Below, piece by piece: positions 3,001 to 48,000 of a stretch of DNA of 50,942 nucleotides. The stretch's first letter is position 1, and every line of letters begins with the position of its first letter. Made by a program: the position numbers and the translations under genes. The stretch spans positions 1 through 50,942 of the forward strand of contig SCRK01000054.1 of NCBI GenBank assembly GCA_004298075.1. The letters are read 5' to 3'. The notes under the pieces are model-generated. The model had not been told where the DNA came from and ran no database searches. It worked only from the letters and a program-made list of their open reading frames with translations. Origin of the DNA: a bacterium. GTDB taxonomy: Bacteria > Omnitrophota > Gorgyraeia > Gygaellales > Profunditerraquicolaceae.

Positions 3001-6000
3001 AACTAGAAACAATGGTTCAGTCTTTGTGGGCTAAGGGTAAATTTACCAGGGATGAGCGGCGCATGTTGGGGGCATGGCTTCTCGGGGACCTGAATTTTTT
3101 TGATTGCGATAAAGGTATCAATAGCAATACTGTTTCGTCCAGTCCGGTTAAGGCACCGCTTCAGATTTTGGATAGTTTTGTTCAAGCAATAAATATGGCA
3201 GAACAACGTTTGGTTGAGGTGCAGCTGCAGCTTTTGCAAAGGAAAGCCGCAGCAGAGTGTATTAAAATATTTAATGACCGCTTGATTGCCCCAGGGAAAA
3301 CTTTCATATTGGCAGAACTTCCTACGGGTGAGTTCTTAATGCAGTTAAGCGCCTTAAAATATGATATCGGCCTTTATCGAATCAGGCGCACTGGAGATTG
3401 GGTTGTTGTGAAAGGAAAGCCGTCAAGCAATAAAATTATGAAAAACTCAGCGCTTAAGACGCTTCTTGAACTTGGCCAAAGCGATATATCTTTGCTTAAT
3501 CACCCTTGCGGTCACACTTATCCTCTTCCTAATGAGATCTATAATGCTTTTTATCGCGGACATAGGTTTAATTATATCATTTCAAATAAAGGAATAAGGT
3601 TTTTTGACCTTAGCCAGATAAGAAATCCCGATACCAAGAAGTTTTTCCTGGAATTAATCCCGGAAGGCGAATTGAGCCATTTTTATTTTGATGTCCAAAA
3701 TTGCCCGGATTTAAAGTGGAACGAAGAATACAGATCATCTGACGCCTGTGTTCAATGGAATATTATTAATAATCTTATCCCATGGAGCAGCTTTAAAGCA
3801 AAAGATATAATTGATCATAAACAATCAGAGTGGATCCAATGGTTAAGCAGCAATAATCCATATGACCGAGTAAAAGCCATACGTTTTGCAAGTCATCTTA
3901 CACCAACAGAGTCAGTAGATGTTATTATTGGCTATTTTAGTGATCCCGAGGATATCGTACGTCTCCAGGCTATTATAGCGTTAGCGCAGATGGTTGAAAA
4001 AAATAGAGGAAACGAGCCTGCGCTGTGCGCCCTAAAACAATGTTTAGATAACGAAGCTGCCCTCCGGGGTTATCTATGTTTCAGAGATATTTACGGGCCA
4101 TACAAAGATTTTGCACAAAGAGGGCTGTTGACCAATCTCAAGCGCATATGCGCTTCGCCTTTACAAGCGATCGAATTTGATTTCCTATTTTTTTATTTCT
4201 CAATGAAAGCGCTTTCAATTACCGGGCCAGTAAGCTTGCCGCGGCGCGTATTAATTACCCCCGCGTTAAAAGCAAGCTCGGCAATAAAAGATAGGGTAGC
4301 CGGGATTTGCGCGCATATACCTTACCTAAGGCATGAAGGGATGCAGGGAGCAGGAGATCTGGCCGGGGTATTAAAGCTACTTGAGTATGCGGCGCTAAGC
4401 GGCCTGCGCATTGTCCAGCTTCTTCCGTTCACCATTTCAAGCTACGGCTATGGGCCTTATTCCGTTGAGGATGACCGCTTAAAAGAGCCGCTTTATATCA
4501 GTATAAATTGGCTGCTTAGATGGATCCCCTGCGAAAAGGCAGCCAGGTATCTCGATGAAAAGCGGGGGGATATCGAACAGGCAAATTCCCTGCAATTCGT
4601 GGATTTTGGCTTTTGCGAGAGAATAAAATTCCCGGCGCTTAGATATATTTGGGAAGAGTTTAACTCTAATCCTGTATATAAATGGTATCATCCGCTTAAG
4701 CTTTCCCAGGCCTCCTTCCATTTATGGCGAAAAATTAAAGACAATATTGACACGCGCCTTCTTTACAGGGTCTTAAAGCGTAAATTTAACTCCGAAATTG
4801 AGAATGGCTGGGATTGGCGGCTTTGGCCTGAAGAATTAAAATTACGTAAGAAGGCTGCCTTGAATGAGGCGAGGAAAGAGTACAGGGGGGAGATGGCATA
4901 TGAACTATTTTGCCAATGGATATTCGCCAAACAATTCCGGGAAATAAGGCGTTTCGCCGGGAGCAATAACGTTAAACTTATGTGCGATGTGCCGTTTTCT
5001 CCGGAAGGCGCGGATGTGTGGATGTATCCCGAGGCCTTTGACCTTAAGCCGCCTGATTTTAAGCGTAAGCTTAGCTGTGGGGTGGCTTCCGACATGTTCA
5101 GCCGGAACGGGCAATACTGGCAATTCTATTATTATACCTGGGAAAAAATCAAGGCGATGTGGTTCTGGGCCGCGCGTTTTATCAGCCGCTGGCTTGAGGG
5201 AATAAAGATACTGCGTTTTGATCATAATTTAGGGGCGTATAGGACCTATGTGTATACAGAGATTGAGCTGACCTTAAAAAGGCTGGGGGTATGCGGCCAT
5301 ATTGAAAATGCCATGGAGGAGGGTTTCTTCCATCCCGGGAAGAGGGAGGCTATTGCCCGGGAGGCATATTTGAGCATTTTAAACAAAGCCTACGAGTCTG
5401 CCGCGCTTGCCGCATATCGCGATTATATTTTTGAAAGCGGCGGAAAATTACGAGAATCCGGCATGGTTTTTATCGCGCGCGAAGCTAAGAATGGCGCTCA
5501 TATGCAGGGTGGTTTATGGTTTAACCCCGGGGAGGTGACCGAACAAAAGATCTTTAACAAAAAACCGAATTGGGATTTCATACGCATATCCGATAATAAT
5601 GAACGGCGGGAGGATGAGATCTCTTCTCCCGACCTGGATCATTTTAGGTGTTATCTTTTCCCCGCTGATACCGCAAATTTACCCCGCCCTGATGACATAG
5701 TAAAATTCGGCTTCTTTATTCCCGGCCCGGGGAGAAAGCTTAACCTTTTGTTAAAATGGCTGGGTAAATTATTCGGCGCCACACTAGTGGTTGAAGCCTT
5801 GGGGTTACTTACGGATTGGATCAGTGAAGATCTGGAGAAAAGCGGGGTGATAAACTATGTCCCGGCTATCTATGGCTTGACCCCATGGGATACCGGGAAC
5901 AGGTACTATTTCCCTAATCATAAGAAAGAAGCTTTTGCCACTTTGGCTTTGCATGATTCTCCGACCCCTAAATCCACCTGGGAAGAATGGCGTAATATTG

Positions 6001-9000
6001 CCGGCTCCGAAGCAGAGGCGAAGCAGAGGCGTCAGCAGATACTTGATTGGTTATGGCCGGGCAAAATGGCGCTGGCAGAGGATCATCAGGAATTCGGGGC
6101 GGATCTGCACAAGGATATTCTTTTGAAGACTTTTCAGTCTCCTGCTTCAATGGTTGTTATTTTGATGTCGGACCTCCTTAATCAGGGCGAAGAGGGGCGC
6201 ATTAATAACCCTGATCCTAAATCAAGCCATCCCAATTGGCGCGCGCGCATGCCCAAAGAGTGCACTATAGATGACTTGCTGGGGGCGGTTCGGAAGAAAG
6301 CCGTTACGGAGAAGGCGCAAGTTGTGCCGGATCTTTTGAATTGGCTGCTGGAAGAATCCGGGCGCAAAACCGCTGCTTCTTCCGTATGCGTAACCTCCGG
6401 CATTTCCTCTTGCGGGCAATCTCCTGCCGGCTGCCTTTTGAATACGCGCTTATCTATCACAAATTCAGCAGCGCACTCACGTCTAATGATCAATCCGCAG
6501 AATGAACTTTCAATCTTGTTCAACGCCTCAAGCGGGATCGTGCGCGCGGGGCCGGTAACTCCAAACTTGTTCACTTCCGGCGCATTAGCCTTGGCAAGTT
6601 CCCCTCAAAGCGATCCAGAGCCAAAGAGCGATGACGAGCAGTTAGGGCTGGTTGCTATCTTCAGCGCCTTAACCGAAGGCTGCGTATATGATCACAGCGC
6701 AGGCCAATTTACCGTAAGCCCCGAGAGAATAATACGGAATTTGGAGAGCGCCGAAAAGAGCCTAACTGCGCTTAATATCCCCTCAACAATATATGGGCAT
6801 GGATTTTCCACCCAGCCTCCAATTATTTCCCGCCTGAACCATGGATTAGACTATCACGGCATCCATAACATGATCCAGGAAGACAAGATCGTTAATATCA
6901 GCGTTAAAGATTATCACATGCTGAAGAAATTATTGCCATTTTTAGGGGAGCTAAAAAATGAAGAGGCACAGTTTGGGGCGGGCAACTTAGATATCCGGGG
7001 CATTACCTCTTATTTTGAAGCGAAAGCGTTAGGGCGCTGTTTATATGACGGAGGCAACCTGGAATCATTTATGAAATTGCTGGAAAAAGGAGAAAAGCCC
7101 ATACTTGGAGATTACCTTAAAGGGATTTTACCTGATTTTGGCGTGAGGCCGGAGGATGGTTTTGAGATCATTGACGCGCGCGAGATAGATAAAAGGCATA
7201 TCTTCCTGACCGTCCTCCTCCACGGCCGTACCGTAATTTCCCTGACTATGGGGTATCCGACCAAATACGCCGACTACGAGTATGAAGGAAGGACCATCCG
7301 GCAGAGGGAAGGAGCCGGCAATGTTTTTTCACCGGATTTCAACGAAGAAGGAAGGCCTGTTCTTTGTAAAGGAATAGACAGGGAGCGCCTCAAGGAGAGC
7401 ATTAAGCGTATGCATGAAAAAGGGAAAAAGGCGCTCTTTGATTTCGTTGCCTGGCCGTCCATAGCTTTTCTCAATGATGATACTTACGTTTATTGCGTTC
7501 ATCATCCTGTTGACCGGAATATGCCGGATGAGCGTTTACTTAGCGAGAGAGGATACAAAGGAGTAAGATTGCATTTAACTAACGGCGACAAAGTCTACGT
7601 GCAAAGAAGAGGAGAGGGCGAGTCGCAGGATCAGTTAGACCCGAATTTTGATCTGCGCACACCTGTCAACGGAAAATTGGAGCCGCCGGGGTATTTCTGG
7701 CAGCGTTTCTATACCCGTTGGATACTCTACCTGATCAAGGAATTCGGTTTTGACGGGGCAAGAGTTGACCTGGCCCATAACTTGAACCACGGCGGAGACT
7801 ACATCATGTTCCAAAGCATACTTTTTAATGTTAAACGCCATGCCTGGATAGATCTTAGAAAGAAGGTTTTCTTTATTCTCGAGACCTATAGGCCTGAAGA
7901 CCGCGATATGTTTGAGCGTTGGAACGGAGAATATTGGTCAAGAAGAGGAGAGCCGTGGCTTAATCAGCTTAAAGCTGATTTTGTGGCGATGAAGGATAAA
8001 ATACGCCATCACTTCCTGACCTTGCAGGACCTTTTCTCGAACATTTTCGGGAAGGAGCTGGGGATTTTAAAGGAGCTGGGAGAAGGCCTTATAATGGGCC
8101 AGGACCGTGAATTTCAGGCATTCCAGCACGATTTCACGGCAACATTAATGGCCTCCGGAACTACCGGGGAGCGCTTACGCAAGCTTGCGGATGGCCAACA
8201 GGATGAGGTTCCATATACCTTTATCCGTTCATACTTTAAGGGCGTCTACGATAATATTGAAAGGCGGGAGTCGGTGGTAAACTTGATGAATTCGCTGGAA
8301 TGGTTCATCAACAACCGCCATAAACTGGTGCTCGTGATCGCTAATTACGATGAACGTTCTTTGGTGGATCTGATACCGGATGAAGCTGTACGTCTGGAAT
8401 TCATTGAGGTGTTCCTCTATTTCGTAAAAGCAGGTTACGATGTGCTTATTAGCTTCCGGGATATTAAAGAGCAGGTAGGGGAGAATATCCCTGTTCCCGG
8501 AGGCAAGGGCACGGTAATAAACGGAGATGCCGATTACATCGTTTGGGAAACGCATCGTCATCCCCCGCAGGCCGAATTCATAAGAAATCTTGAGGTTCTT
8601 CTGGGGGATCAATTGTCCGAGGCGCGTTTTTATCAAAAGATGACGGATACGGAAGATATCAGGATAGATGAAGTTTCCCTGGATAGAGGTCAGAATAAGC
8701 TTGTATTCAGAAATGAGCATAAGGATATCAGGGTATTTGATCTCGCTTCGATGATGGAGCGTCTCAAGGCCTCGTCTTCTATTACGGATCCATTAGGGTT
8801 GCGGCAGGGTGAAATTATAATAACTGGTTACCTCTCCGTGGCTGGTGGGGACCAGTTCCCTGTCGCAGCCCTTTCAAAAGGTTCATCTTCTGCTTTGCTG
8901 TCCCTAAGAAAGGTAATACTCGTAACAGCCATTCTCGGCAGCATACTTTTATTCGGTCCTTTACCTGCACTGACCGGTTTGTGCCTGGCGGTCCATATCA

Positions 9001-12000
9001 GCCTATCTCGCAGTTTGCTTAGGTCCAATAAAGAATTCAGGGAAAATAGGCCGCAAAAGCCCGTGAAATTAGCAATAAAGTACGCGGGCAGGAAAATACT
9101 TAGGAATGTCAGGATTAATTTTACAGAATTATCTAAGAAGATCAAGCAGCATCTTGCCGCAGAATCAGAAATCGGGGCAAGCATGAGCGTCATTCAGGAA
9201 AAGTTAAATAAATTCCAGGAGCTAAAAGAAAGCTTAATCAATTCGATATTAAATGAGCACATGGCGACAAAAACGGTTTGTCTTGCTTTATTGAAAAAAG
9301 TCCAGGAAGAATGCCCTCTCACTGAAATAGGCTCTGAAGGCGTCTCTTCGGCCGCCTCCAGTCCTTTAGCTACGGTATACCCGGCTTTTACCACCGTAAG
9401 AAATAGCGAGAGGGGGATGCCGGTTGTAAAAATCACATTGAGAAATACCGACAAGAGAGGGAGTCTGCTTCTACCGGACGATATAAAAGTACTTAGTGAC
9501 ACGGCTTATCCAATCAATGAATTAAACGATATCCGCATGCGGATAATAGATACTTTTGATGCTGTTTGGCCGCTTTCGGAGAATCGCCCCATTATGGAGC
9601 GCAGCTTCATTATCCATCCTTGTCTTCCCATACGTGGTCACCGCGATCATACCTATTTGTGCGTCAGCACTAAGAATAACTTTTACTTGGCTCACGCTCT
9701 TTTCAGGCAAACCCTGCCTATTGAATTTAAGCAGGTTGTTTTGAAGTATAGAGGCTGGCGTACCTTGACCTTTGAAATACCTTTAGAGATATTAGAAAGT
9801 CACCGCTTAACTCTATGCCAAAGAGAAAAATACGGGATAATCTCGGAAGATGACTGGATTGCGGAATTACTGGAATACGTGAGGTTTAAGATATTTGTTA
9901 TCGGCGAGGAATTCACCCGTTCTCCATTCACCCGGTTCAGCGCTTCGCCGCTGGAGGGAGGGATGCAGAATTACTTTGTGAAAACCGCGGGAAGAAAAGG
10001 GAAAACAGGGCCATCAGCTTATTCTTCTTTTTCTGCGAGATACGATTATGGAGCGTTGGTAATGGGATTGTATAGATTTGAAAGGATAAATGGGGGCAGC
10101 CCAATTCAGGATGGGAGAAATTATCCGGAGCTGCGCGCTAATATCGCCAGAATCTTAGGGAAATCCGGATATCCGGCCCTGGCGGATATATTTTTTGATA
10201 CTTCCTCCCCGCTTTCAGCAAAAATGGCAATCCAGCAAACTCATGTAAAGAAATTGCAAGTTTGGCAGTCTAAATATGAAGATTGGAATGAAGTCGCGGA
10301 AATTGTCCCGGATTTAGTCAAGTTCAACGGCATTAATGGTTATGGGCGTTATCTAACGGAGGATGAGATAAATGCTTTGGCACAAAAAGTGCAGAACGGT
10401 AATAAAGCTGCAAGAGAGGTGCTCATTCTGACAAGGCGTGCCCAGGTTGCCGGCGCAGTAGAGAGATTTATTTTTGAGAATCCCTGTTTTAGTCGCGATG
10501 ACAAAGATGACCTTATGCAAATTGCAACATTCGGCAATGGAAAAGGCGTTGGTGGTCTTGCCCGGGCAGTAGAGCTTTTTGACCCGGATAACGGAGGGCT
10601 TTTTTCTGCATACGCTAAAATGTGGATTAAGTCGGCCTTATCACAAGGATTGCGCAGGCGGTTAAAGAACAAAGTGCGGCCTTTTGATTACGATCCGAAT
10701 GGATCCCGGGAAGGCGGCCCGGTTAACCGCATATCCGAAACAAAATGTTTATTTGAGGATGCATTGGAAGCTGATCTATCTGCGCATTTGCAGGAAGCTA
10801 TCCGGTATTTATCATGGACAATCTCGGCCAGAGATAAGGATATTTTAATTAGCCACATTAATGACGAGTCTAACCCCGCTATAGGTAAACGTCATAAAAT
10901 AAGCAATGAGAGGGTCCGGCAGATATTAGATAGGACGACGCAACAGCTTAAGGAGATGGTCCGCTCTGGCAAATACGCATTGATAAAGGCATTAGTTGGC
11001 ACGAAGGTGAGTGTTCCGGCAGTAAGCAAGCAATTTAATATCCCAGCTACTACACTTTATGTCCGGATTAAGGCCCATGGCATATCCCTGCCGGAATTGC
11101 GCAAACAGCTCATTTTAGAGTTAGGAAAGAATACGGGATTCGAAGCGGATGAAATGGCCGCGGAGCTTGGCATAACCAAAGAGTCTCTCTTTGACAGAAT
11201 GAAAAAACTGGGTATTCCGTGGCTAGAGGCAAAACATGCTTACGAAAAAGAATGGTTAATGCCGGCTTTAGCCAGTTGCGGAGGCAATATCTCTGAAGCG
11301 GCCAGGAAGCTTGTTATTGCCGAACAATGCTTACGTAAAAAGTTAGAGCCGTATAAATCAGAGCTAAAGGAAATGCGGCGCCAGGCTCTATTGGAAAGAA
11401 GAGTGGCAAGAAGAATGACAATCCTGCATGCCCTGGATGAAGCTGATTACAGCGTACCGCGTGCCGCGGCATTATTAAGCATGAGTACCGACACTCTATA
11501 TCAGAACATAAGCGATTTGGGCGTTGATTTAAATGCAGGAAAGAAAGCACGCGATAAGAAATGGCAGGATGAGCAGAGAGCAGAAATAACCGCCGCCTTG
11601 GAAGCAGCCGGATATGATATTTCCAAAGCAGCGAGGATGCTCGTGGTAAATCTTAACACCTTGCGTTGGCGAATAAAGAGCCATAAGATTGACGTGCAAA
11701 CTGGAAGGCAATCATATCTAAAAAGAATAAAGGCGGAAGAGCGGGCGCGTATTACAGAAGCTCTCATCTTTTGCGGTAACAGGGTAAGCCTTGTTTCCCG
11801 GTTCCTCAAGATCTCCAAAGATATTTTATATGATAGGATAAAAATTTACGGTATCGATATAAGCAATAAAGAACTCCTCAGACAGATTAACCATATTTTT
11901 GTTTCTAGCTTGTCTTTGCCGCCTTTAGTTGAGGACAATGCTATTTTCCCGGTGGTCGATTCGCCCAGTACAAACCTTTTTAAGCTCATAAACGAAACCC

Positions 12001-15000
12001 CCGAGTTCCTTTATCCGGGCTGTAGCGCTTCGCCCGTAACTTTAATAGGAGGAAAATGGATAAGTCAAAATAGCAATGAGATATTAAATATCGCGATCCA
12101 AGAAGATTCTGCGCCGGAATTGGTCATGGATAAGAGCGATAGCATGGAAAGAATAGGGAAGGTTGATTTCCACATTATTAATAAACTGGATATTCAAGTA
12201 ATAAATATCGAAATTGAGGATGTATTCTTAGGCAGAAAGCATTCATATGATCTTCTTGATTGCCTATTTTTATATTATTATCTGCAGGGGGCGTTTTCTT
12301 TTGAAGTTGTGAAAGTTCTTAATCCCCTTATCGCAAGAATGTTAATTAATATATATGGCTTTGATGCATATTTTAAGGACCGCAGAGTTGCTGCGGTTAT
12401 TGGAGAGAGCAAGGAGGGGGGGAAGGCCCAGATATATTTTGAGGATTGGATGGGTGAAGATATTCTGGAGAGGAATCTTTATGTAGGAGACATATTATTG
12501 GAATTAGAGGTTGTACAAAATACTCCCGTGCCCGGGACTAAGATCTATATAGGAGACCGCTATCATTTAAGGGACGAAGTACTCTTTAAGTCCAGGATGC
12601 AGCAGGTTATACGCAGGTGGACTGGCATCAGCGATTTTATGGTAAAAGGACCAATCGGCTCTTCCCCGCTTGCCTCCGCGCAAGGAGAGAGAAGGAGCGC
12701 AGAAGGGCTCCTGCCCAGTCTTTCCATTAAAAATGGCGCCAGGGTAGTAAAATGGGATAATTTCTACGAACTCGTATGCGCTTCGCCGGTAGTTTCTCCT
12801 TTCCGTAATTTTCTTTCTCATGCCCAAAGGACAAGAGCTTTGTTCAGGTCTATATGGTCAGCCAATGCGCCTCCGCTGATTATCGCCGCTATTTTATCAG
12901 TGTTTCTTTCTGCTCCCGCCTCCGCCAATTATTCTAAAACTTCCACAATCCCTTCAAGAGAGGAGTTAATCGAGAAGATAAGACAAAATGATGCCGATAA
13001 GATACGCCTTCTTGATGTCCTCATCAAATCCGGTTTAACCAGTGAATTAGCAGAAGCCATAATTGACCTTAAGATAAGCTGGCAGCAGGCATATGAGCTT
13101 GGCTGCAAGTTGCGGGATAATTACAAAAAAGGCATTTTAATGCTTACCGGTGGTAGGCTTCCGGAAGCAAAGGAGGTATTCTTAAAGATACTGGGCATGG
13201 AGAAAAGAATCGCGCCCGTCCATTATTCTTTGGGGATAATAGAGCTCGCCTTGAATAATCCCGAAGAGACCAGGCGCTACGCGGAAACAGCGATAAAATT
13301 GGAGCCGGGACATCCGCTAGGATATGAGTTGTTAGGGTATGCCTACATCGCTTTGGCCGTTAAAAAAGAGCAAGAAGGCGCAAGCTTGAAAGAAATTATC
13401 TTCTGTTATCGGCAGGGTATTCATAATCTAGAAAAGGAGATAAGATTGTTCCCTTCATCGGGGTATGGTGTTAAAGACCTGATAGGGAAAGTACGGGAGG
13501 TTATCCAGGGGTTGGAGGGCACATCTCCTGGGAGGCAACCGCTAAAACATGGCCCTGTTTTGAAAGAGAATAAACCGCAAGACAGCCCTGACAATAACCG
13601 CCGTAGCGGCTCCTCGCCTATTTCAGTAGGATTTCTGACAATCCCTGATTATGCGGATATTTTAGACACTATTAAGGCGATAGGAATGGCGACGAGGCAT
13701 TATAACGAGAGACAGTATCGTGCTATTAGGCGCTTTTCGGTTCCGGAAGGAAAAGTCGTTTGCGCTTCGCCGTTGGCATACGGGAAATATCCCGGTATCC
13801 CCTTCTACCCGGTTGGGATACCCGTTGATCTGGATGATTATTTTAAACTGCACTATCCTCGCGGTTTCAGTGTAAAAACTAAGGTAGCTTTTGTCAGAAT
13901 AAAAGATGCGCTCAACCTATTCTTGCCGGATGATTTTAGCGCAATATTAGAAGGAAAAATCAACCATATCCTGAAGATCGCAAAAGGGTATTATCCTAAT
14001 GGTCCTTCTCGCGATGGGCTGGTATTTAAAACCCCCGGTATAAGCTTAACCCGTATGAAATCCATGGTTATTACGACTGATATAGAGTCAAATTTTAGCG
14101 AAAGTTATTTAGAAGGCTGCAGTTTAATCATTCGCCTGGTCCGTCAGACAGAGTTGCTCCTTGATATAATCCAGGCTGGCTCGCAAGAAGACGGCATAAT
14201 AGTGCGCGCAGGATCCCCCCTGGGGAATACTCGTGATGATTTATTATTTGCTCTGGATGGCTTGCAAAAAGAGATCGGCCTTGAAATATCTCTTCTGGTT
14301 CTGCGTGTAGGTCTATGGTTAGGCCTGCCGATAGAGGAATTTTCCGCCAATGCTGAATCTCTGGTTAAGGGGATGAAAAGTTGGGATAGCCATAAGAAGA
14401 TCGCCATATTTTGGGCTTTAAGGGATTCCGCGAACAGGCTCCCCAGAGATGATGAAAAATCCTTACCCCTGACAATAGCAAAACCTTTGTTTGATTTAAG
14501 CGAAAATGAACTAAGCGCATTGAATATGGCATTGGCAAATTCCGGTTGGAAACTCCACAGGATCGGCGAGGGTTCGGTAGAGTTGATGCCGGCGGCTATA
14601 TTTGTCGTAGAGGACCTGATCAAGAAAGAGCTTGGCGAATATGAATACGAGAGGTTATTCGGGATTTTAGGCAGGTTCAATGACTTCAGGGAGAAGTTAC
14701 TAAGATTAGCCGCTATTGGCAGGGAACTTGCTGGCAGCTTAGAGCCGGAGAGGCAATTCTCTTCTTCCTCTATCGGGGTATCTACCTTTGAGCAGCCGGA
14801 TTTTGAAGAGTTATTTTTTAACCACTCTAATCTCGAGCGGCTTTTTAATTCCGGAGAGAGGCAAGTTATATATTTGGCGGAAAGAGGCTGGGGTATAGGC
14901 GAGATTACGTCAATAGGCGGGGCTTTACCGAAGATAAGGTTCCCAAGCACAAAGCCCGCAGAGAGGGAGTTCAATAGAGCCGAGATATTAAGGTCCGGTC

Positions 15001-39000: not shown

Positions 39001-42000
39001 TGGCCCAGGCTTTTTTCCCGGGCCATACCGCGCCCATGCTTGTGGTTACTATTATTGAAGCTTTGTTGTGCCGGCAGTTATTCGGCTGGAACAGTTTTCT
39101 TGGCTTTGGAATAGGCGTATTTCTTGCCGGTATGTATACAGGGTTTCCCATTACTTTATCGCTGTTATCGTTTTTAATAAGCCTCTATTATATGTTTAAT
39201 AAATGCGAAAAGATCCGTTCGCCGCTAATTCGTGCCGGGATGAATTTTCGCGATTGGGCAGTTTTAATGAAAGTACGCCTGGGCATTAAGCGGTTGATAA
39301 ATAAGGCCCGTTCTAAAGGAATGGGCGGTTTTACCGCTGAGGATCTGGTTGTGCTTTTGTATTGCCACTACTCTTATGATGCCTGGCTAAGAGACGCAAT
39401 GCTTGAAGGAAGGGTCAACTTGGTTAACGATGGTTATGTGACTTTGCGCAAGATGGCATCCAAGCAGCTGCGCGAGCTTTCGTTAAACAGGGAATTTTTG
39501 ATTAGCTTGGCCAATTTTACGGAAAAATTGTATTTTCTTTTAAGCGGGACAGCGATTATCAATAAGAAATCACGGGCTATCATCAGGAAAATAGTGGCAA
39601 AGATTGAGTCTGACCCGGCATTATTTTACGCCCGGAAACTTCCCGTATCCGGGTTGGTATCTGCCGATATTGAAGCCGCAAATTACGATTATCCTTCGAA
39701 AGATTCGTTCATTTACGAAAGAAGTGTAGTTATCTTGACGGAAGACATACAGGACGTCGCGCTTTATATCCAGAGGTTCATTGATTCCAAAGCAGACAGT
39801 TTTCCCGATGGGAAATTACCGTGGTTTGTGCATCCAGAATGCCGGATAAGGTTGAGCGTCATAAAGTTGTTTTCCGGAGGTCAACCTTGCATGAGGAAGG
39901 ATATCGTGCAAAACGTAGATTCTTTGGCTGAAACTATTTGGGATGGTTTGCAGCAGAAATACGGAATTGTACTAAAGAGCATAGAATCAGCTCATCCAGC
40001 CGCCTCTCCCCTGGCGCACAGGCAGATATTCACTAATCACATTATTTATCCGTATCTGTTACTCAGTGAAATAGGGCTGAGCGATCTAGAAGATACGAAT
40101 GCTATCGCGTACTATTATTTAAATAGGTCGAGAGCATCTGAAATAGAAGATGATTTTGAGTTTGTTATAGAGGTCTACCCTGGTTCAGAAGAAAAATTCA
40201 ATATTATATTGGAAAGAGTGAGAAAGGCAAAGAAATTATTGAAATTTTTAAGTTTACGCAGGCAGGTAGAAGTAATTTATGGAATTATGAAAAAAGAAAT
40301 TCCTAGGTTAGCTGACCCGGATGGGTATTGCGATTTTACGTCCGCGTTTCTTGCAAAATTGTTGGTTGAATTAGGGCATAACAGAATTGAGACGTGTAAA
40401 GTTAGAATATTGTGCAGAGATGGGCATTATGAGGACCATATGTTCATCCGCAAGCGGATGTTTGATAATTGTGATAATCTATATATAGACCTAAGGTTAG
40501 AACAGTTTGGGGACATCATTGACAGGTTGGATGAACTGTTCCGTTTATCCTCTATTCAGCAGCCTAATCTGAAATCTAACGTTAATATATTAAGCCAAGC
40601 CCGGACATTTTTAAGGCATTTAACATTTAGCCACAAGAATGAATACGGGTATACCTTTAAGTATCAATTTGAAACTATAGGTAAAGAAAGGGAATCAACA
40701 TTTGGGCATTATCTTCCCGCGCGTGCCGGGGGGCTTTTTTACTCCGCGGAGAAACTCATTATTGCAATTGAAACAATTCCAGGAGGGAATGAGATAGCTG
40801 TATTTTGCAGTGTCAGGATGATGCAGGAAGGAATAAATGGCATTGAACTGTTAGAGAATATTTTAGGTCTGGATAAATTTTGGGAAGATTGCCGAAGTTC
40901 ACAAGATGATAGCGGAGTGGATAACGCAAGGAATAAAATTGCTTCAAAATTGGAGAGCTTAAAAATAGATGCCGCTTTTTCCGTGGTGGCTAACGGGGAT
41001 ACCCTTCCGGTTGGCTCCAAAGACGCCTCCCGATTGGTTTCAGAAACGTCCCTACTGGCTCGCAACTCCTCGCCGCTGGTAAATATAGATTCCGAGGAAG
41101 TAGAATACCTTTCTGTAGAAGACAAGATATTTAACGAGCGGCCAGATATAATACGTGCCGTAATCAAAGAAGAACAACCTCCTCTATTTGAGGTCCAGAT
41201 CCATCCAACCAGTATCTGCAATAATAGATGTATAGGGTGCATCGGAGTAGCCATTGATAAAACCCTTAAGAATAATGTTTGTTCTCGCGCATACGTATCA
41301 CTTTCCCGTAGGCAATTTTCGAAAATCATCCAAGATATAGTAGAATATAATTCCCTCGTAACAGAAATTCCAGGGCAGCATCCTGTCAAGCGCATAATAT
41401 TTTCCGGGCTTACTGGGGAGCCACTTTGCAACAGACACAGTATTTATGCGATAAAAGAACTCGCTGAAATAGGATCCAGCATTACGCTTTTAACAAATGG
41501 AAGACTTCTTAATAATGAAGAAAAGAGGGAAACGGTAATTTCTTCTATCACCGATATTATTATCAGTTTGTACGGGGCTTCGCCGGAGACCTATGAGCTT
41601 GTTACGCGGGTAAACAGAAAAGCCTTTAGGCCTCTCATGGAGGATATAAGTAGATTGGTTCAAATTAGGAATGATAAAGGGCTGGGAAGCAAGATAGGAA
41701 TTGCGTTTTTAGTTGAGCGCGAAAACTATAAAGAAATTATTTCCGTAACAAGGGTGGCCCGCGAATTGGGAGTTGATTTTATAAGATTCAGGGCCATTAT
41801 GCAGGCTACCGAAAGTATGTTAACCTCCAGCCAGTGGGAAGAATGCGAGAAATCTATGTCTTTAGCCAAGCGCACATTTGAAAGCAATAGTTTTCAGGTT
41901 ATGATCACTTCTGATGATAAGAAAACATCGTGTAATTTACCGAAAAGTTGTTTAAACTGCGTCGCCTGCCAGATCATGCCGGTAATAGGTCCGGATTTTA

Positions 42001-45000
42001 AGGTTTACCCCTGCTCCCATCTTAGTTATATTGGCGCGGAAAGCTTCGGGCCTTTTGAGGATGATTCTTTGTTCAATTTAATGTCCGGTGCACGTAAGCA
42101 GCAGCTGATTGCCAGGATTACTTCTCAACCTACTGAAATTGTCTGTTCTCCAAGAAGAAGCAGGATAAATTCTTTTTTTGATAGGATAAAGAGTGGTAAC
42201 ATCGCCGCCTCGCCGCTGGCGCAAGGGCGGGGACAGTTCTATCGCAACTTATTGTCAAGCAACGCATTAGGCAGAAACGGTCTTGCGGGCATTTCGCATG
42301 TCCGGAAGGAATTTTTGCCTGACTTGGGTATAAGCGCCTCGCCGCTGGCGCAAGAGTCGACTTTAACGGCATCTCCATCATCAATAACAATTACTGGACA
42401 TACTGGTGATATTGGAGCCACACTATTACGATTTGCCCTAAATAGAAATTTAGCAATACATGTGCTTGCTAGAGAAGAATCCTACCATAAGTCTCTCTCG
42501 CTATTCCGTGTAAATGGAGAATCTATAAAGTATCATAGGGGAGGTTTATTATCTATATCGGCAATAAGAGAAATAGTCTATTCTACCGATGAATTATTTT
42601 ATCATCTCGCCGCAATGGTCAGCCGGGAATTTAGTCCTGAACAAAAAGCCCTGGTGTTAGCAATAAATGGTTTCGGAACAGGGCTGATTGTAAAAGAAAT
42701 AAAAGACTATAATAGAAATATTAGGTTCATTTACGCGTCCAGTCAGAGAGCCTATCAATTGCTAAATCAAAAAGAGGTGACAAAATTTATCCAAAAAGCC
42801 TATGAGAAATTTAGCAATGAAATAGGACCTTTTTTGAAATCCCCGGATGAAGTAGTCAAAGAAAAGATATTGGCAATAAGCCAATCTTTATTAGATGATC
42901 TTCCTCGGAGTGTAAATATTTACGATATTTCAAAGTTACTTGGCGAGAAGTTTGCCGAAGACCTTCCTAATATTGCGATAGCTCGCATTAGTAATGTGTA
43001 TGGGCCGGGGTTTGCAGGAAATAGATTAGTGCGAAGGCTTATCGAAGGCAGGTTTTCTACCAAAGGTACAAAGGTAGTTAATGAAACAAGAGATTATATT
43101 TATTCACATGATTTAGTTGAAATATTGTTCAAAATTGGCGCTAGCACTAATTTACCGAGAATTATCGATATTGCAACCGGAGTGCAAGTTACCATCAAAC
43201 AATTAATTAATATTATATATAAGTATACCCAAGATTGCCTGGGAGTATTAACTCCCGCTGGTACACAAAAGTCTACTTTCAAGCAGAGCGGTGATATTGC
43301 CAGGGAAATATTAGGCAGGGACTTTGAGGACTTGGAAAACGGACTGGGAAATACTATAGATGACTATAGATTAAGAGATACATTGAGCTGCGTTCATTCA
43401 GATCGCGATATTGCTGTTTTTGATATCGGAGGCGCTTCAGTGCGTACAGAAATAGGCCCTCATAATAGCTTTCTTATTAAAGCGAACGCTTTAGAAACGA
43501 CAAGATTTACGAATTATTTTACTACAGATATATTTAGTGAAACTAATGACATATTGGCTTCCCTGTGTGAAGGCAGAAGGATCTCAGTTTTCGTTGATGC
43601 AGCCATATTTGATTTATATAAAGATGCAATAAGCAGCTATTTAGTAAAACATAATATCGAATTTACTTTGTATTCTTGTGGAGGCGGAGAAAGTAACAAG
43701 AACCTGGAATCGGTTTTTTGGATAATTGATACAGCAATGGAAGATGGAAGGGATCGTAAAGCAATTTTTGTGGTAGTGGGGGGCGGTGCATTAATGGATG
43801 TTGTAGGGTTAGCGGCTCAGCTTTACAGGAGAAAAATAGATTATATTAGGATTCCTACTACTTTGTTAGGGCTTGTTGATGCAGCGGTTGGCATCAAGGT
43901 AGGAGTTAACTATAGGGGGCATAAGAACTTCTTAGGCGGTTTCCATGCTCCTCACGCCGTTATTAGCGATCCATCTTTCCTTAGTACTTTGGACTCAAGA
44001 CAAATGAGAGCCGGGGTAGCAGAAATAATAAAAATAGCGATAGTTTCCGATAGGGGTCTTTTTGAAGAAATTGAACAATGGGGAAAACAGTTAATTAACA
44101 ATGAGCCATTTCCTAGGAAAGATGAAATCATCAGGCGGGCAGCTGTTGAATTAATGAAATATCTTCAGCAAGATTTATATGAAAGAGATCTAAGGAGATA
44201 TCCGGATTTCGGGCATACTTTTGCCCCTCAAATAGAAGATATAAGTAGCTATTCAATATTGCATGGAGAAGCAGTAGGAATAGATATATTACTCTCAAGC
44301 CATATTGCGATGGAAAGAGGCATTTTGCCAACTTTTGTTTTTCATCGGATTGTCAATCTGATTAGAGGCTTGGGGTTACCTTTATTTGATGATTCAATTG
44401 ATTTTGATGGAATATGGAATAGCCTCGAGAGAACTATAGCTCATAAGGGCGGCAGGCTTTTAATGTTAATTCCTAAAGATATCGGCCAAACAATATTTAC
44501 TAATTCTTTATCCCGAGGTGAAGTTGATAGGGCCCTGGCTTATTTCAAGAAATTACATGAAGGGGAAACTGTTTCTAGCGCAATCGGAACAGCGGGCTGG
44601 TTGGTCAGCCGCAGCGCCTCGCCGCTGGCCGAAATTAGAAGTAGAGAATACTGGTTAAATATAGGATTGATAGAATCTATTTTCTATGGGATAGGAGTGA
44701 TAGTGGGCAGTTCGCGGTATTTGTCCACGGGCAGTAGATTTGTGCCTCTGGACTATATTAGCGACGTGGATGTTAACATTATACTAAACGATAAAGATGC
44801 AGATGCAGTATCGATATTTGGTGGTGTTCCGATAAGAATAATATATCCTGCTATTGAAAGAATAAAGAATGATTATGGAGCAGAAATAGAGTGGGAAGAT
44901 CCCTGTAGACTGGAAATTAAAATTCCTAACAAGTATTCATTTTATTTTCATTTTTTAGACGTTTCCTCTGTTGATCACATAATCAAAAATTGCATTTACG

Positions 45001-48000
45001 AACAAAAGTGGAATCTTAGTTATTTATATCAGTGGAAGTATACGAATCTTACAGGATTCAATATTATCGTGAAGTGGCTGAAAAGATATCTTTCGATAGA
45101 ATATTATTTTGGTGATCCGGATAGGTACAGAAATAATCGCGACGCATTCTTAGTTTGCCAAAGCTATGCTGAAATGGATAAGTTGAGAGATAGAATTATC
45201 GCATCTGGAGTTGTGGATTATTTTCTAGACAGGGGAGTGCATTGTAAATACAGGTATGTTTATATATATGAGCGCGTCAAAGAATTGCTTTTTTGTGGCC
45301 TCAGTGATGGAATGCGCAATGGCGACGAACAAGATGCCCCTGAAACGGTGATGGGTTTATCTAATAAACAGGGAATTTCAGCCGCCGCCTCGCCGCTGGT
45401 AGAATATCCATATTTGCGCGACCGTGTGGCAGTTGGAATAAGAAGGATCGCGCATAATGCGATATTTGGGCTAAAACTTGATCCCATTCTTGCATTTTTA
45501 AGCGACAAAAGGGATAAGGAAGATCAAGAACTGGTAAGAAGATTTAAATCTCTAAGAACGGATGTTATTAAAAATAGAAACGGAGAAAGAAAATGGATTG
45601 AGGAATTTGCTTATATTTACCAAGAAAGAATAAAGTTATTAAGTTTAAAGACCTACAAATTGAGGGAATTTGAATTTTCCCCCATTGAATTATTACGTAC
45701 AAGTTATGATTTTATCTGCTGCAATTCCCCAAAAGATATCTTAGATACCTATTATATAAAAGAGGCTTTTCAGGCATATCTCATGTATGTGTATAATGAA
45801 AGATTTGATTGGAAGGGACGTGGACATGTTAATGCGAATGCAATCGATTTAATTTCTATGCTAATAAACATATTTGATAATGCCGTAGAGGTGACCGGAT
45901 GGCGAAAAAGGGAAAGCATGGAAAAACATGTTGCTAAGTTTCTTGTCAGCGCTTACTGCGAAGATGATATGTTTGTTATTGAGATTCAAGATAAAGGAGG
46001 GGGCATACCTGAAATCAGCTTGGAACGTGGCAAATATGAGGATAAAGGCCTTCGTTATTCGAAAATCTTTGATTACGGGTTCTCAAGGGGTAAAAAAGGA
46101 AGCGGCATAGGTTTAGCAGAGGCATTTTTCGTCATCAGTGACCATAAGGGGACAATAGAGATAAAAAATAACCCTGGCGTAGGAGCTGTTTTTGCTATCA
46201 AGTTGCCATTGGTAGGGAGTGATTCACCCGAACGCGCCAGTGGAGCCTCGCCGCTGGAGCAGGATGCTATATCGGCTCTTAAATCAGAATTCCTCAAGGT
46301 ATATAATGTGATCAGCACGCAGGAAATATTGGATTACTTAGAGGAAGATGGTTCTCTTTTTATGCGCTATACAATGGCAGGAGTCTGTGGCAGGGTAGCT
46401 TTTTTCCATGAACGTGCAGAAATATGGTATCTCCATACAGTAATGGGGATCACGGCTCCGTATGTTTCGCAGATAAGTGGCAGAGAGTACCTTTATGCTC
46501 ATGCGTTCGCTATAGACAATGAATTTGACTTAATACAAAAAGAAGCATTTGAACAAGGGTGTCCAATATCCAAAGAGGCATTGGTATTAACCGCGCCTGA
46601 TGCGTTTATATTCCCCAATGATCCAGATGCAGTAGCAATGTTTAATTTGAGAAATTTCCTCATAGGCGCTTGGTGGGGATGCCTAAACAATATTCCTTCC
46701 GACATAGAGGCCGAAGCCGCACTTAATTTTTACCTTGCAGATGAACAAATGTTCACAGTTATAGACGATACGCAATCTGGGTTGCTCAGTAGGGATGAGA
46801 TAAAACAAGCAAGCCAGAAACTGCTGCGTCAAATCCGATTTTATAAAATAGAAATATCCAGGTTAGTTCAATATAGCAAAGAAGTGAAGTTAGGTAGGGT
46901 ATTCAGACTAATATCTCTTGCTATTATGAAAAACAATAAACATGAATTAAGAAAAATTCTACAAAGGCTGTCATTTGGTGGCTCATCTCTGATTGCATCT
47001 AAAGACAAAACTATCTACATGCAAACAGCTGATTGCAGATTATTGGATACCAACAAGGGCGCCTCGCCGCTGGCGCTTGAAAGCGGGGGTTATAAAGCAA
47101 TAAGAATCAATGGCAAGGATTATTATCCATTAATCAGTCCTAAAGGCGACCTTGAATTTAGGTTTGATATTTCGGCCATAATAAGAGAAGAGCTGTCATC
47201 CATTATAGATGATTTGCAGCAAGACATGATTAAGGAGGATACATCTTTAGATATATTTAAAGCTGGATATTGGCAGACGCGCTATCTCGAATTAGAAGAG
47301 CAAGAAATCCAGCTGATAGCCGATAAACTTAGGGAGCTTCTATTATGCGCAAACCGGATTTGCATAGCCGGAATTGAGACCCTTTCATCGTTAGCTAGGC
47401 ATAAATTTATCTTGGGTATGTTTTTGGGTAATCAGCATTGCGCTGAGCATTCGATTAAGCAGGTTAAGGCACGCCAATTATTTGAAATAATGCAGTCCAC
47501 AATGAAAAGGCTGGGTATTTCATATCCGGTATATGTCTTTGGGAGCGCGGCTAAATATGGCTTGAGAGAGGGGCATGATATAGATATCGCAATTCCGGAG
47601 GAGAGATTTTTTAGGGCGCCGACGATTAACAGATTGATTGAGAATTTAAGAATTGAGCTTTCCGGGTCTTCGTATTGGGGCCCAACCATTAAAGACAGGT
47701 TATCTTTAGCGGAGCTGACCGAGAAGAGGCCGGATTTCAATCCATTCCTACACGGTATTATTTATCGAATTTCATCCGATTCTATTACCCCGATACAGGA
47801 TTATAATGAGCTACATGAAACCATAAGAAATGATACGCATGGCGCTTCGCCCCTGGTGCGCCATAGCGTACAGGAAAAAGTTATAGGTCTAAAAGATTGG
47901 CACGGTTTTATTCCCGCATTAAAACAAGAGCTAAATAAACAAGATTACCGTAAGGATTACGTAGTTATTAGGGTTTTTAAGGCAAATAGGATCAAGGTTT

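Follow-up and report, generated by a model that had tools for sequence, protein, structure and literature searches.

An Omnitrophota giant open reading frame is an in-frame chain of protein-sized modules separated by a recurrent [AS]-S-P-L junction motif

The stretch of DNA analyzed here, referred to as the window, is the 50,942 nucleotides (nt) of contig SCRK01000054.1 from the Omnitrophota assembly GCA_004298075.1, and it is occupied by one giant open reading frame (ORF). Read from base 3, frame +3 is free of TAA, TAG and TGA over the 50,942 nt, and the remaining five frames have 742–1,369 stop codons per frame. The ORF comprises at least 16,980 codons and is open at both window ends, so that the window holds an internal segment of a larger gene. 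With this length it is well above the size used for the giant multi-enzyme ORFs of Omnitrophota (at least 10,000 amino acids (aa) in a single ORF), and it is an internal part of a giant ORF of that type. About 60 cassette-like, protein-sized modules with a median length of 272 aa are joined in it head to tail and in frame, each the counterpart of one ordinary cytoplasmic, membrane or exported protein, and the modules meet at a short peptide motif that is referred to as the junction.

The motif [AS]SP[LVI] is found in 50 in-frame copies in frame +3, or 52 when two copies with Ala at the fourth position are included (Table 1). The chance level is 1.9 copies in shuffles of the protein and 1–8 copies in the other frames. 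All junction copies are direct, on the plus strand and in frame 3, and ASPL (24 copies) and SSPL (16 copies) are by far the commonest tetrapeptides of the protein. A small residue precedes the motif (S 19, G 11, A 8, C 6), Ala often follows it, and the consensus of the junction DNA is KCY TCG CCG CTG (GCC TCG CCG CTG). The spacing between junctions, with the same median as given above for the modules, has an interquartile range of 170–347 aa, and degenerate copies such as S-S-S-I and S-S-A-L split the longest of the gaps.

None of the 52 junctions lies inside any of the 21 domain envelopes identified in the ORF, as compared with 11.3 expected (analytic P ~2.5e-6), and a placement with none inside was reached in 0 of 20,000 random permutations. 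The ends of the domains are also spaced from the junctions as they would be from the termini of separate proteins, as the first-pass annotation had proposed for whole stand-alone equivalents ending at the motif. The HAD profile match starts 21 aa past one junction and ends 22 aa short of the next, the two HATPase_c domains end 3 aa (first) and 10 aa (second) ahead of a junction, like a normal C-terminus, the DHQS match ends 13 aa ahead of one, and the GxxGxxG motif of the epimerase starts 16 aa past one. Three Sec-type signal peptides with a basic n-region, a hydrophobic core and an AxA-like site start roughly 15–50 aa past junctions. Two of these were found by a hydrophobicity scan (cores at aa 4284 and 10377), and the third, near aa 8515, was read from the translation; a relative in another genome, P0017, likewise has a signal peptide behind a junction. 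Met after junctions is not enriched (15 of 51, against 15.1 expected), which rules out internal translation starts or relic start codons behind junctions.

Two irregularities of the junction pattern can be mentioned here. Between the epimerase and the DHQS-like cyclase, nt 43431–43442 read GGC GCT TCA GTG (G-A-S-V), which is junction-like minus the Pro codon and may be a decayed boundary that permanently fused two modules. In addition, five mini-modules of 18–65 aa lie between junctions (12660–12779, 17136–17258, 35781–35975, 42207–42335 and 15480–15533). The last of these is a hydrophobic 18-mer just upstream of the HAD domain. No family match was obtained for the five, which may be spacers, short peptides or what is left of deleted cassettes.

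The module inventory (Table 1) was obtained with Pfam and NCBIfam profile scans of 20 motif-bounded chunks of the ORF, and transmembrane (TM) segments and two of the signal peptides were called by a simple Kyte-Doolittle hydrophobicity scan with 19-mer windows. About 20 different Pfam families are found along the chain, and only the sigma-like module recurs (three times). The 21 domain envelopes make up 22% of the ORF and leave a large Pfam-dark remainder. Both TPR modules score under the Pfam cut-offs.

Table 1. Features of the window and giant ORFs of related genomes that carry junctions. Numbers separated by a slash after "profile" give the matched part and the full length of the profile. 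GC3, GC content at third codon positions; HTH, helix-turn-helix; GH, glycoside hydrolase family.
Feature	Location (nt)	Location (aa)	Strand	Evidence or remarks
Internal segment of giant ORF, 16,980 codons	3..50942		+	Stop count by frame
52 junctions [AS]-S-P-[LVIA]	3138..50942		+	Pattern search of frame +3
First bases of the junctions	3138, 4152, 9357, 9942, 10203, 12027, 12660, 12780, 13611, 13764, 15480, 16179, 17136, 17259, 18111, 19734, 21213, 21660, 21879, 22383, 23109, 23631, 24483, 25491, 25857, 26829, 27666, 28401, 28593, 29523, 30981, 31812, 33015, 33678, 35781, 35976, 36690, 37206, 38079, 38847, 40002, 41067, 42207, 42336, 44616, 45387, 46245, 47061, 47844, 48345, 50490, 50931		+	
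Ten degenerate junction copies (S-S-[SA]-[ILV] and similar)	4275, 6375, 6597, 8772, 8883, 14763, 15534, 31104, 34392, 38916			
Block of pristine junctions, 9/10 exactly GCCTCGCCGCTG	42207..50942		+	GC3 down to 0.33-0.38
HEAT-repeat module	3828..4055	1276-1351	+	PF13646, 7.2e-8
GH77 4-alpha-glucanotransferase	4320..6260	1440-2086	+	PF02446, 3.9e-64, profile 4-462/465
Module labelled GH13 by the first-pass annotation	6597..8783		+	GH13-like strings by eye only (GFDGARVDLAH, FFILETY, IANYDE)
Sigma-70-like module 1 and Fis-type HTH run	10203..12026	sigma 3499-3652; HTH 3750-3955	+	TIGR02937, 1e-11; HTH_8, 1.2e-25, 3 scored stretches
Signal-peptide TPR module 1	12780..13610	hydrophobic core 4284-4308; TPR 4405-4446	+	Core ...SAPASA/NY
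HAD-type hydrolase	15480..16178	domain 5181-5371	+	PF00702, 8.5e-17; TIGR02253, profile 2-195/221
RelA_SpoT (synthetase-like), weak	17358..17621	5786-5873	+	PF04607, E 0.0014
HD domain, RelA/SpoT-hydrolase type	20388..20882	6796-6960	+	HD_4, 6.1e-5; TIGR00691, 4.5e-9, profile 17-144/687
Two multi-TM modules with a non-TM module between	21879..23633	7293-7461, 7703-7877; non-TM 7461-7703	+	Hydrophobic 19-mers scoring 1.8-2.9 at aa 7327-7404 and 7729-7850
Ser/Thr protein kinase	23775..24191	7925-8063	+	PF00069 (Pkinase), 1.3e-14
CheR, weak match		8266-8325	+	
Signal-peptide-like module	25491-25856	signal peptide near 8515	+	Directly upstream of sigma module 2
Sigma-70-like module 2	25857..26828	8736-8917	+	TIGR02937, 1.9e-11, profile 2-161/165
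Histidine-kinase core module	28593..29522	9660-9838	+	PF02518 HATPase_c, 8.9e-18; AtoS, profile 433-609/616
HNH_repeat-like repeats and sigma-70-like module 3	29523..30980	sigma 10162-10303	+	
Signal-peptide TPR module 2	30981..31811	core 10377-10395; TPR 10463-10578	+	Core ...LPASA/YS
NUDIX hydrolase	34662..35063	11554-11687	+	PF00293, 2.4e-9
Pfam-dark module, unit-wise conserved	38079..38846	12693-12949	+	Homologue in P0017
Radical SAM/SPASM-type	41067..42206	13731-14007	+	PF04055, 6.5e-7; TIGR04317, 1.8e-22
NAD-dependent epimerase/dehydratase and DHQS-like cyclase, one module	42336..44615	epimerase 14128-14412; cyclase 14501-14859	+	Epimerase PF01370, 3.3e-18; cyclase NF004852, 5.6e-71, profile 23-402/407, and TIGR04425, 5e-51
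Second HATPase_c module	45813..46217	15271-15405	+	PF02518, 4.6e-13
Nucleotidyltransferase, weak	47508..47615	15836-15871	+	PF18765, 3.2e-4; PF01909, 2.4e-3
PIG-L/BshB1-type deacetylase, weak	49842..50198	16614-16732	+	PF02585, 2e-5; TIGR04001, 9.7e-7
P0017 / L001				Part of a giant ORF, open for 5,218 aa up to the contig end; window-type junction in 14-15 copies
L002				20.4 kb, one open frame throughout; 13 junction copies, most 0-2 mismatches from GCCTCGCCGCTG
P0011 / L003	giant ORF ends at 8106			Giant ORF of 2,702 aa; 10 junction copies
P0009				4,552 aa; 14 copies of R-x-S-A-S-G
P0015 / L004	L004 10001-24619			Complete 4,872-aa gene; 12 copies of R-x-S-A-S-G

The first-pass annotation, which had been made from the sequence without database searches, described a non-repetitive chain of ordinary enzymes, regulators and membrane proteins, and this description was confirmed by the profile scans and by BLAST of the modules. 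Its range of 4314–47620 covers only the part between the outermost recognisable domains, GH77 (nt 4320) and the nucleotidyltransferase (nt 47615). The lack of C-A-T or KS-AT-ACP units and of long Ig, cadherin or VCBS arrays could also be confirmed, as the Pfam and NCBIfam scans found no condensation, adenylation, ketosynthase (KS), acyltransferase (AT) or carrier domains of nonribosomal peptide synthetases or polyketide synthases and no Ig, cadherin or VCBS domains in the window. No long repeat arrays were found there either by module BLAST or by a tandem-repeat scan, whose sole hit in the window is a repeat of 47 nt. The ORF thus resembles the megasynthases and the repeat adhesins (Ig, cadherin, VCBS and RTX giants) in size only. 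Module-versus-module BLAST within the window gave four paralogous pairs, made up of the three sigma-like copies (37–40% identity, 39% for module 2 against module 1) and one weak signal-peptide pair.

Among the functional neighbourhoods proposed in the first-pass annotation, the order radical SAM, epimerase and cyclase is supported by the profile matches. A sigma factor followed by a leader-bearing TPR module is also seen, directly adjacent at aa 9841–10604 and two modules apart at aa 3401–4537. Two further pairs stood only in part. GH77 is well supported and also matches amylomaltases in the PDB (1e-21), but its supposed GH13 neighbour had no Pfam match at E<=5, no PDB match with phmmer and no homologue, and the single-sequence AlphaFold2 (AF2) model was unusable (pLDDT 36). 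The pair of (p)ppGpp synthetase and hydrolase consists of a moderate HD hydrolase match and, about 920 aa away, a RelA_SpoT match of 19.3 bits, which is below the 27-bit cut-off.

Right behind the first sigma-like domain, within the same junction-to-junction module, there is a run of Fis-type HTH_8 domains (nt 11250–11867) in which about five or six repeats can be counted by eye, an uncommon layout. Sigma-70-like modules are regularly preceded by tandem W..GY repeats of about 45 aa each, matching the homing-endonuclease-associated Pfam family HNH_repeat. This layout is common to nt 29523–30980 of the window and to P0008 (37 bits), P0011, P0016 and P0019. Three antisense ORFs of 163–276 aa on the minus strand (8229–8720, 14144–14974 and 40739–41431) lie fully within the giant ORF and are the only complete ORFs of at least 150 aa in the window, in a listing that omits ORFs crossing the window edges. 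Scans of the window for tRNA genes and Rfam families found nothing. GC skew is positive over the entire window, and the GC content falls from ~0.46 to ~0.39 within the last 9 kb.

Relatives were searched for exhaustively with HMMER, using aa 3401–4600 as the query, and with word-indexed searches using the epimerase/DHQS module and a sigma profile, and genome loci were located with a 5-sequence sigma alignment. The best sigma-like HMMER matches lie within proteins of 2,083–4,872 aa (P0007, P0009–P0013, P0015 and P0017). Stand-alone sigma factors (175–280 aa) rank lower, at about E 1e-8 and weaker, and align over nearly their whole length. With the word-indexed searches, the epimerase/DHQS module gave 5 distant matches only (AroB or AroK-AroB, 511–585 aa, 27–33% identity) and the sigma profile a single one, a 260-aa sigma factor. 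The epimerase/DHQS module had no match in genome, viral or metagenome contigs, and an alignment of the aa 12693–12949 module had none in a metagenome scan. The relatives with which modules or the junction are shared are, wherever they carry a name, Candidatus Omnitrophota metagenome-assembled genomes (MAGs), and the two loci found with the sigma alignment come from such MAGs as well. The window itself contains no marker genes, and the collections searched gave no match of the window to itself. Further modules of the relatives include ThiG, PHP, a PrmA-like methyltransferase, GlpX and a xylose-isomerase-like TIM barrel.

The relatives fall into those with the junction of the window and those with another motif (Table 1). 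R-x-S-A-S-G takes the place of the junction in P0009, P0015 and P0012, with 12–14 copies where these were counted (P0009 and P0015). In P0015/L004 it is almost invariably encoded as AGC GCG AGC GG, with AGY for Ser in 24 of 24 cases, against a 40% background, and CGN for Arg in 11 of 12. In L003 and L004 the neighbouring genes are of ordinary length, have standard stops and lack the motif; this includes the five ordinary ORFs downstream of the L003 giant ORF and, around P0015/L004, housekeeping genes (S15, PNPase, FtsK, RecA, AlaRS and the his operon). In P0010 and P0013, short repeated hydrophobic punctuation segments are found instead of R-x-S-A-S-G. By reading the sequences, the complete N-termini of P0007, P0009, P0015 and P0033 were seen to share a signal peptide ending ...IAW[AS], and the first junction of P0009 and P0015 is at residue 47–48. 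These N-terminal signal peptides suggest that the precursors would be targeted to the Sec pathway.

Several of the modules could be followed across genomes one by one. The module at aa 12693–12949 is ~60% identical to aa 4002–4247 of P0017 (61% in the module search, 59% in the flanked alignment), and the alignment begins and ends at junctions despite the 80-aa flanks supplied on each side. The histidine-kinase module (aa 9531–9841) is 51–55% identical to a module of L001. Here the two are strongly similar from the upstream junction on, apart from a weak extension ahead of it, and the similarity ends exactly at '...TLPVE..ASPLE', beyond which the sequences are unrelated. The HAD module is 30–33% identical to the HAD modules of P0017 and L002, which share a HAD-to-sigma adjacency not seen in the window, and the TPR, HAD, sigma and aa-12693 modules come in different order among the window and its relatives. 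In these comparisons the modules evolve as discrete units, with homology running essentially from junction to junction and with differing neighbours.

This bears on the origin of the chain, which the first-pass annotation had seen as fused operons of stand-alone genes. Outside the giants, the hits are indeed stand-alone proteins of ordinary length (the AroB or AroK-AroB proteins and sigma factors above), but the sigma-like, histidine-kinase, HAD, signal-peptide-TPR and aa 12693–12949 modules have their closest relatives inside other giant ORFs of Omnitrophota, of 2,000–6,800+ aa. Module homologues found only inside other giant proteins were the observation that the annotation had named as speaking against it, and this is in part what was seen. 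Nor are the same functions found side by side as single genes in related genomes, where they are differently ordered modules. The idea of fused local operons is therefore only partly right, and the modules are long-standing, shuffled residents of Omnitrophota giant genes rather than freshly fused operons.

The junctions carry signals at both the peptide and the DNA level. Both codon families, TCN and AGY, are in use for junction Ser, as are CTN and TTR for junction Leu, with varied synonymous codons in the 5' two-thirds of the window. Because the peptide is kept despite these switches, the junction amino acids must be under selection. At the same time, TCG accounts for 46–77% of the junction Ser codons, against a background of 8–10% in the same ORFs, and CCG for 66–90% of the junction Pro codons, against 20–35% (window, L001, L002 and L003 in both cases). 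This points to an extra constraint on, or homogenisation of, the junction DNA in the four genomes.

The mismatch to the 12-mer GCCTCGCCGCTG declines in the 5' to 3' direction along the window (Spearman rho -0.63, p 4.5e-7). L001 shows the same trend, with pristine copies at its 3' end (rho -0.67), whereas the trend in L002 is the opposite, with pristine copies at the 5' end (rho +0.79). Near-exact junctions (0 to 1-2 bases off) thus come in regional blocks (window 33015–50942, L001 21374–23530 and L002 704–9725), and since the gradient of L002 runs against those of the window and L001, the pattern is regional rather than polar and a single 5' to 3' polarity of junction age is not general. An RNA hairpin at the junction (GCGCC...GGCGC) was also considered and rejected, as ten folded junctions gave z-scores of -2.1 to +0.6 relative to shuffles and inconsistent structures.

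Of four readings of the junction, we prefer the one in which it is a processing site and the chain works as a polyprotein, and we hold this with moderate confidence, at about an even chance. The chain would be translated as one precursor from a single start, with no start codons retained behind the junctions, and a protease would cut the precursor at the junctions, possibly after Leu, as in a polyprotein. Cleavage would free sigma-like factors, enzymes and TPR proteins, and the signal peptides of the latter would then be near a free N-terminus. The conserved junction DNA would in addition be a likely breakpoint for gain, loss and exchange of cassettes without disturbance of the frame. The strict conservation of the peptide, its lineage-specific variants, the signal peptides, which need a nearby N-terminus, and the sigma factors, which should act free, argue for processing. 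[AS]-S-P-L is similar to Ala-Ala-Pro-Leu/Phe (AAPL/AAPF), the classic substrate of subtilases (S8), and sigma factors activated by proteolysis exist in the form of pro-sigma-E and pro-sigma-K. Other Omnitrophota giants are reported to carry S8 and C39 peptidase domains in their N-terminal parts.

In its fullest form this proposal becomes more tentative, and we regard it as possible though doubtful. It would make the chain a true bacterial polyprotein and an in-frame cassette array at once, with a dedicated protease cutting at every [AS]-S-P-L (R-x-S-A-S-G in sister lineages) and the 12-nt junction serving as the exchange breakpoint. About 60 or more proteins would be freed, among them sigma-like factors, kinases, (p)ppGpp-type and glycan-degrading enzymes and Sec-exported TPR proteins, which might represent the deliverable effector set of a predatory bacterium.

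Several points weigh against processing. Profile scans found no protease domain in the window, L001, L002 or P0017, and none is listed for the complete 4,872-aa P0015, so that a protease would need to be encoded beyond the window or to work in trans. Certain units between junctions contain two enzymes (epimerase and DHQS), and others, of just 18–65 aa, would be odd as released proteins. Conservation of the junction at the codon level is not needed for a protease site and points to an additional or alternative role of the nucleic acid. Cleavage itself is so far a proposal from sequence. That neither a protease nor a recombinase was found in the sequences examined is the main weakness both of processing and of a role as a DNA site.

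A chain that is never cut is the next possibility, which we consider somewhat unlikely. The ORF would then encode a membrane-anchored multi-enzyme scaffold (the 'coat' model), with the motif as a hinge, a linker or a Ser/Pro-directed glycosylation or phosphorylation site. In the literature, each of these giants is viewed as one surface-associated protein rich in TM helices, and the window has 19 overlapping strongly hydrophobic 19-mers corresponding to about a dozen distinct segments. The lack of a protease also fits, as does the mild enrichment of disorder-promoting residues at the junction flanks (0.31–0.32 vs 0.26). Linkers are usually variable, however, and here 4–5 residues are fixed across genomes whose modules are 30–60% identical, while another lineage has a different and equally fixed motif. 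Sec-type signal peptides with AxA sites are kept just behind junctions, and no strong TM segment separates an exported TPR module from the NUDIX and GHKL-type modules behind it, which would be an awkward topology if uncut. If tethered in a membrane protein, a sigma factor could presumably not join RNA polymerase freely, and the view of the first-pass annotation that sigma factors and exported TPR proteins cannot plausibly work in a tethered state seems reasonable.

The junction could instead act primarily at the DNA level, with GCCTCGCCGCTG as a 12-nt core for recombination or gene conversion that would insert, delete and swap cassettes, much like an integron or shufflon array kept in frame, and with ASPL as a tolerated by-product. 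The conserved synonymous positions in four genomes, the blocks of pristine 12-mers described above, the shuffled module order and the homology that stops at junctions all speak for such a role, and the SASG-type lineage is equally codon-specific. As the copies are direct and in phase, exchange between them would preserve the frame. Yet old junctions drift in nucleotides and keep the peptide, neither the window nor the loci of its relatives yielded a recombinase or integrase, there is no attC-like structure, with hairpins no better than those of shuffles, and 12 nt is short for homologous recombination. We find it unlikely that this is the primary role of the junction, and a DNA site does not exclude the polyprotein.

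An artefact, be it assembly or frame errors, a non-standard code or piecemeal translation from internal starts, is largely refuted and highly improbable: the homologous giant ORF of L001 (MAG GCA_028710715.1) is split into three frames at ~7640–8010, but this lies beside a run of Ns and is probably a scaffolding gap, not three real genes, while 16,980 stop-free codons are impossible by chance or by mis-assembly of separate genes, the independent MAG contig L002 is open throughout with the same junctions, a sense codon used as a stop was rejected on the standard stops of the neighbours in L003 and L004 and on the frequent TCG, CCG and CTG inside modules, and Met is not enriched behind junctions.

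The giant multi-module ORF itself is of a published kind. ORFs of more than 20 kb are present in most Velamenicoccia, with few annotated domains and a poorly understood function (Seymour, 2023; PMC10066038). ORFs of up to 85,804 aa include an 'Archaeovorin' type with glycoside hydrolases, methyltransferases and NUDIX domains (West-Roberts, 2023; 10.1101/2023.11.21.568195), and a 'multi-enzyme metabolic cluster' class has been described (Nielsen and Lui, 2026; 10.64898/2026.06.07.730766). The window resembles these in being part of a giant single ORF tiled by many Pfam families with none dominant, in the kinds of families (glycoside hydrolase, methyltransferase, NUDIX, radical SAM and HEAT/TPR), in its many TM segments and much Pfam-dark sequence, and in its Omnitrophota relatives. 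It differs in that no SecA_DEAD, C39/S8 peptidase or glycosyltransferase was found by Pfam in the window, though the gene continues beyond both ends.

The processing reading invites comparison with viral polyproteins and with toxins. In picornaviruses, potyviruses and nidoviruses (pp1ab), one ORF is cut at short conserved sites by a cognate protease. The window has the same arrangement of one ORF for many independent proteins with a short conserved motif at each boundary, and the motif differs by lineage ([AS]SPL vs R-x-SASG), as viral cleavage sites co-vary with their proteases. It differs in being a cellular gene some 5–20 times longer, with housekeeping-like content, no protease found and a putative cleavage. 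The MARTX toxins of Vibrio release exchangeable effector modules by means of an internal cysteine protease that cuts after Leu. They are likewise very large proteins with variable, recombining, effector-sized modules, the junction has a Leu followed by a small residue, and the complete relatives of the window begin with a signal peptide, which is compatible with export. Unlike MARTX, the window has internal TM segments and neither RTX glycine-rich repeats nor Peptidase_C80 by Pfam, and the position of the cut is only proposed. Integron cassette arrays and shufflons share with the window discrete cassettes bounded by a repeated short DNA site and varying in order and content. The cassettes of the window, however, are fused in frame, the site is translated and selected as a peptide, and no integrase or recombinase and no attC-like hairpin were found.

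What is new is the junction motif with its lineage variants and the module homology bounded by it, which make the junctions candidate sites of cleavage or cassette exchange. Neither West-Roberts (2023) nor Nielsen and Lui (2026) describe the motif or the junction-bounded cassette homology, and no description of the motif was found in open-access papers and preprints on these giants. Giant ORFs are common in Omnitrophota, and the literature leaves it unsettled whether each makes one protein or is cut into pieces; cleavage was suspected, with the cleavage points stated as unknown (West-Roberts, 2023). The junctions are short, over-represented and placed only between domains, occur in three independent Omnitrophota MAG loci, have a lineage variant and bound the homology of modules. 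They make the question of one protein or many directly testable, for example through neo-termini in existing proteomes, and can be used to split giants into units of a size suited to structure prediction and to follow how cassettes are exchanged among giant genes. Confirmation of cleavage would make this by far the largest known polyprotein system of a cellular organism, and it would explain how sigma factors and exported proteins come to be encoded within a multi-megadalton ORF.

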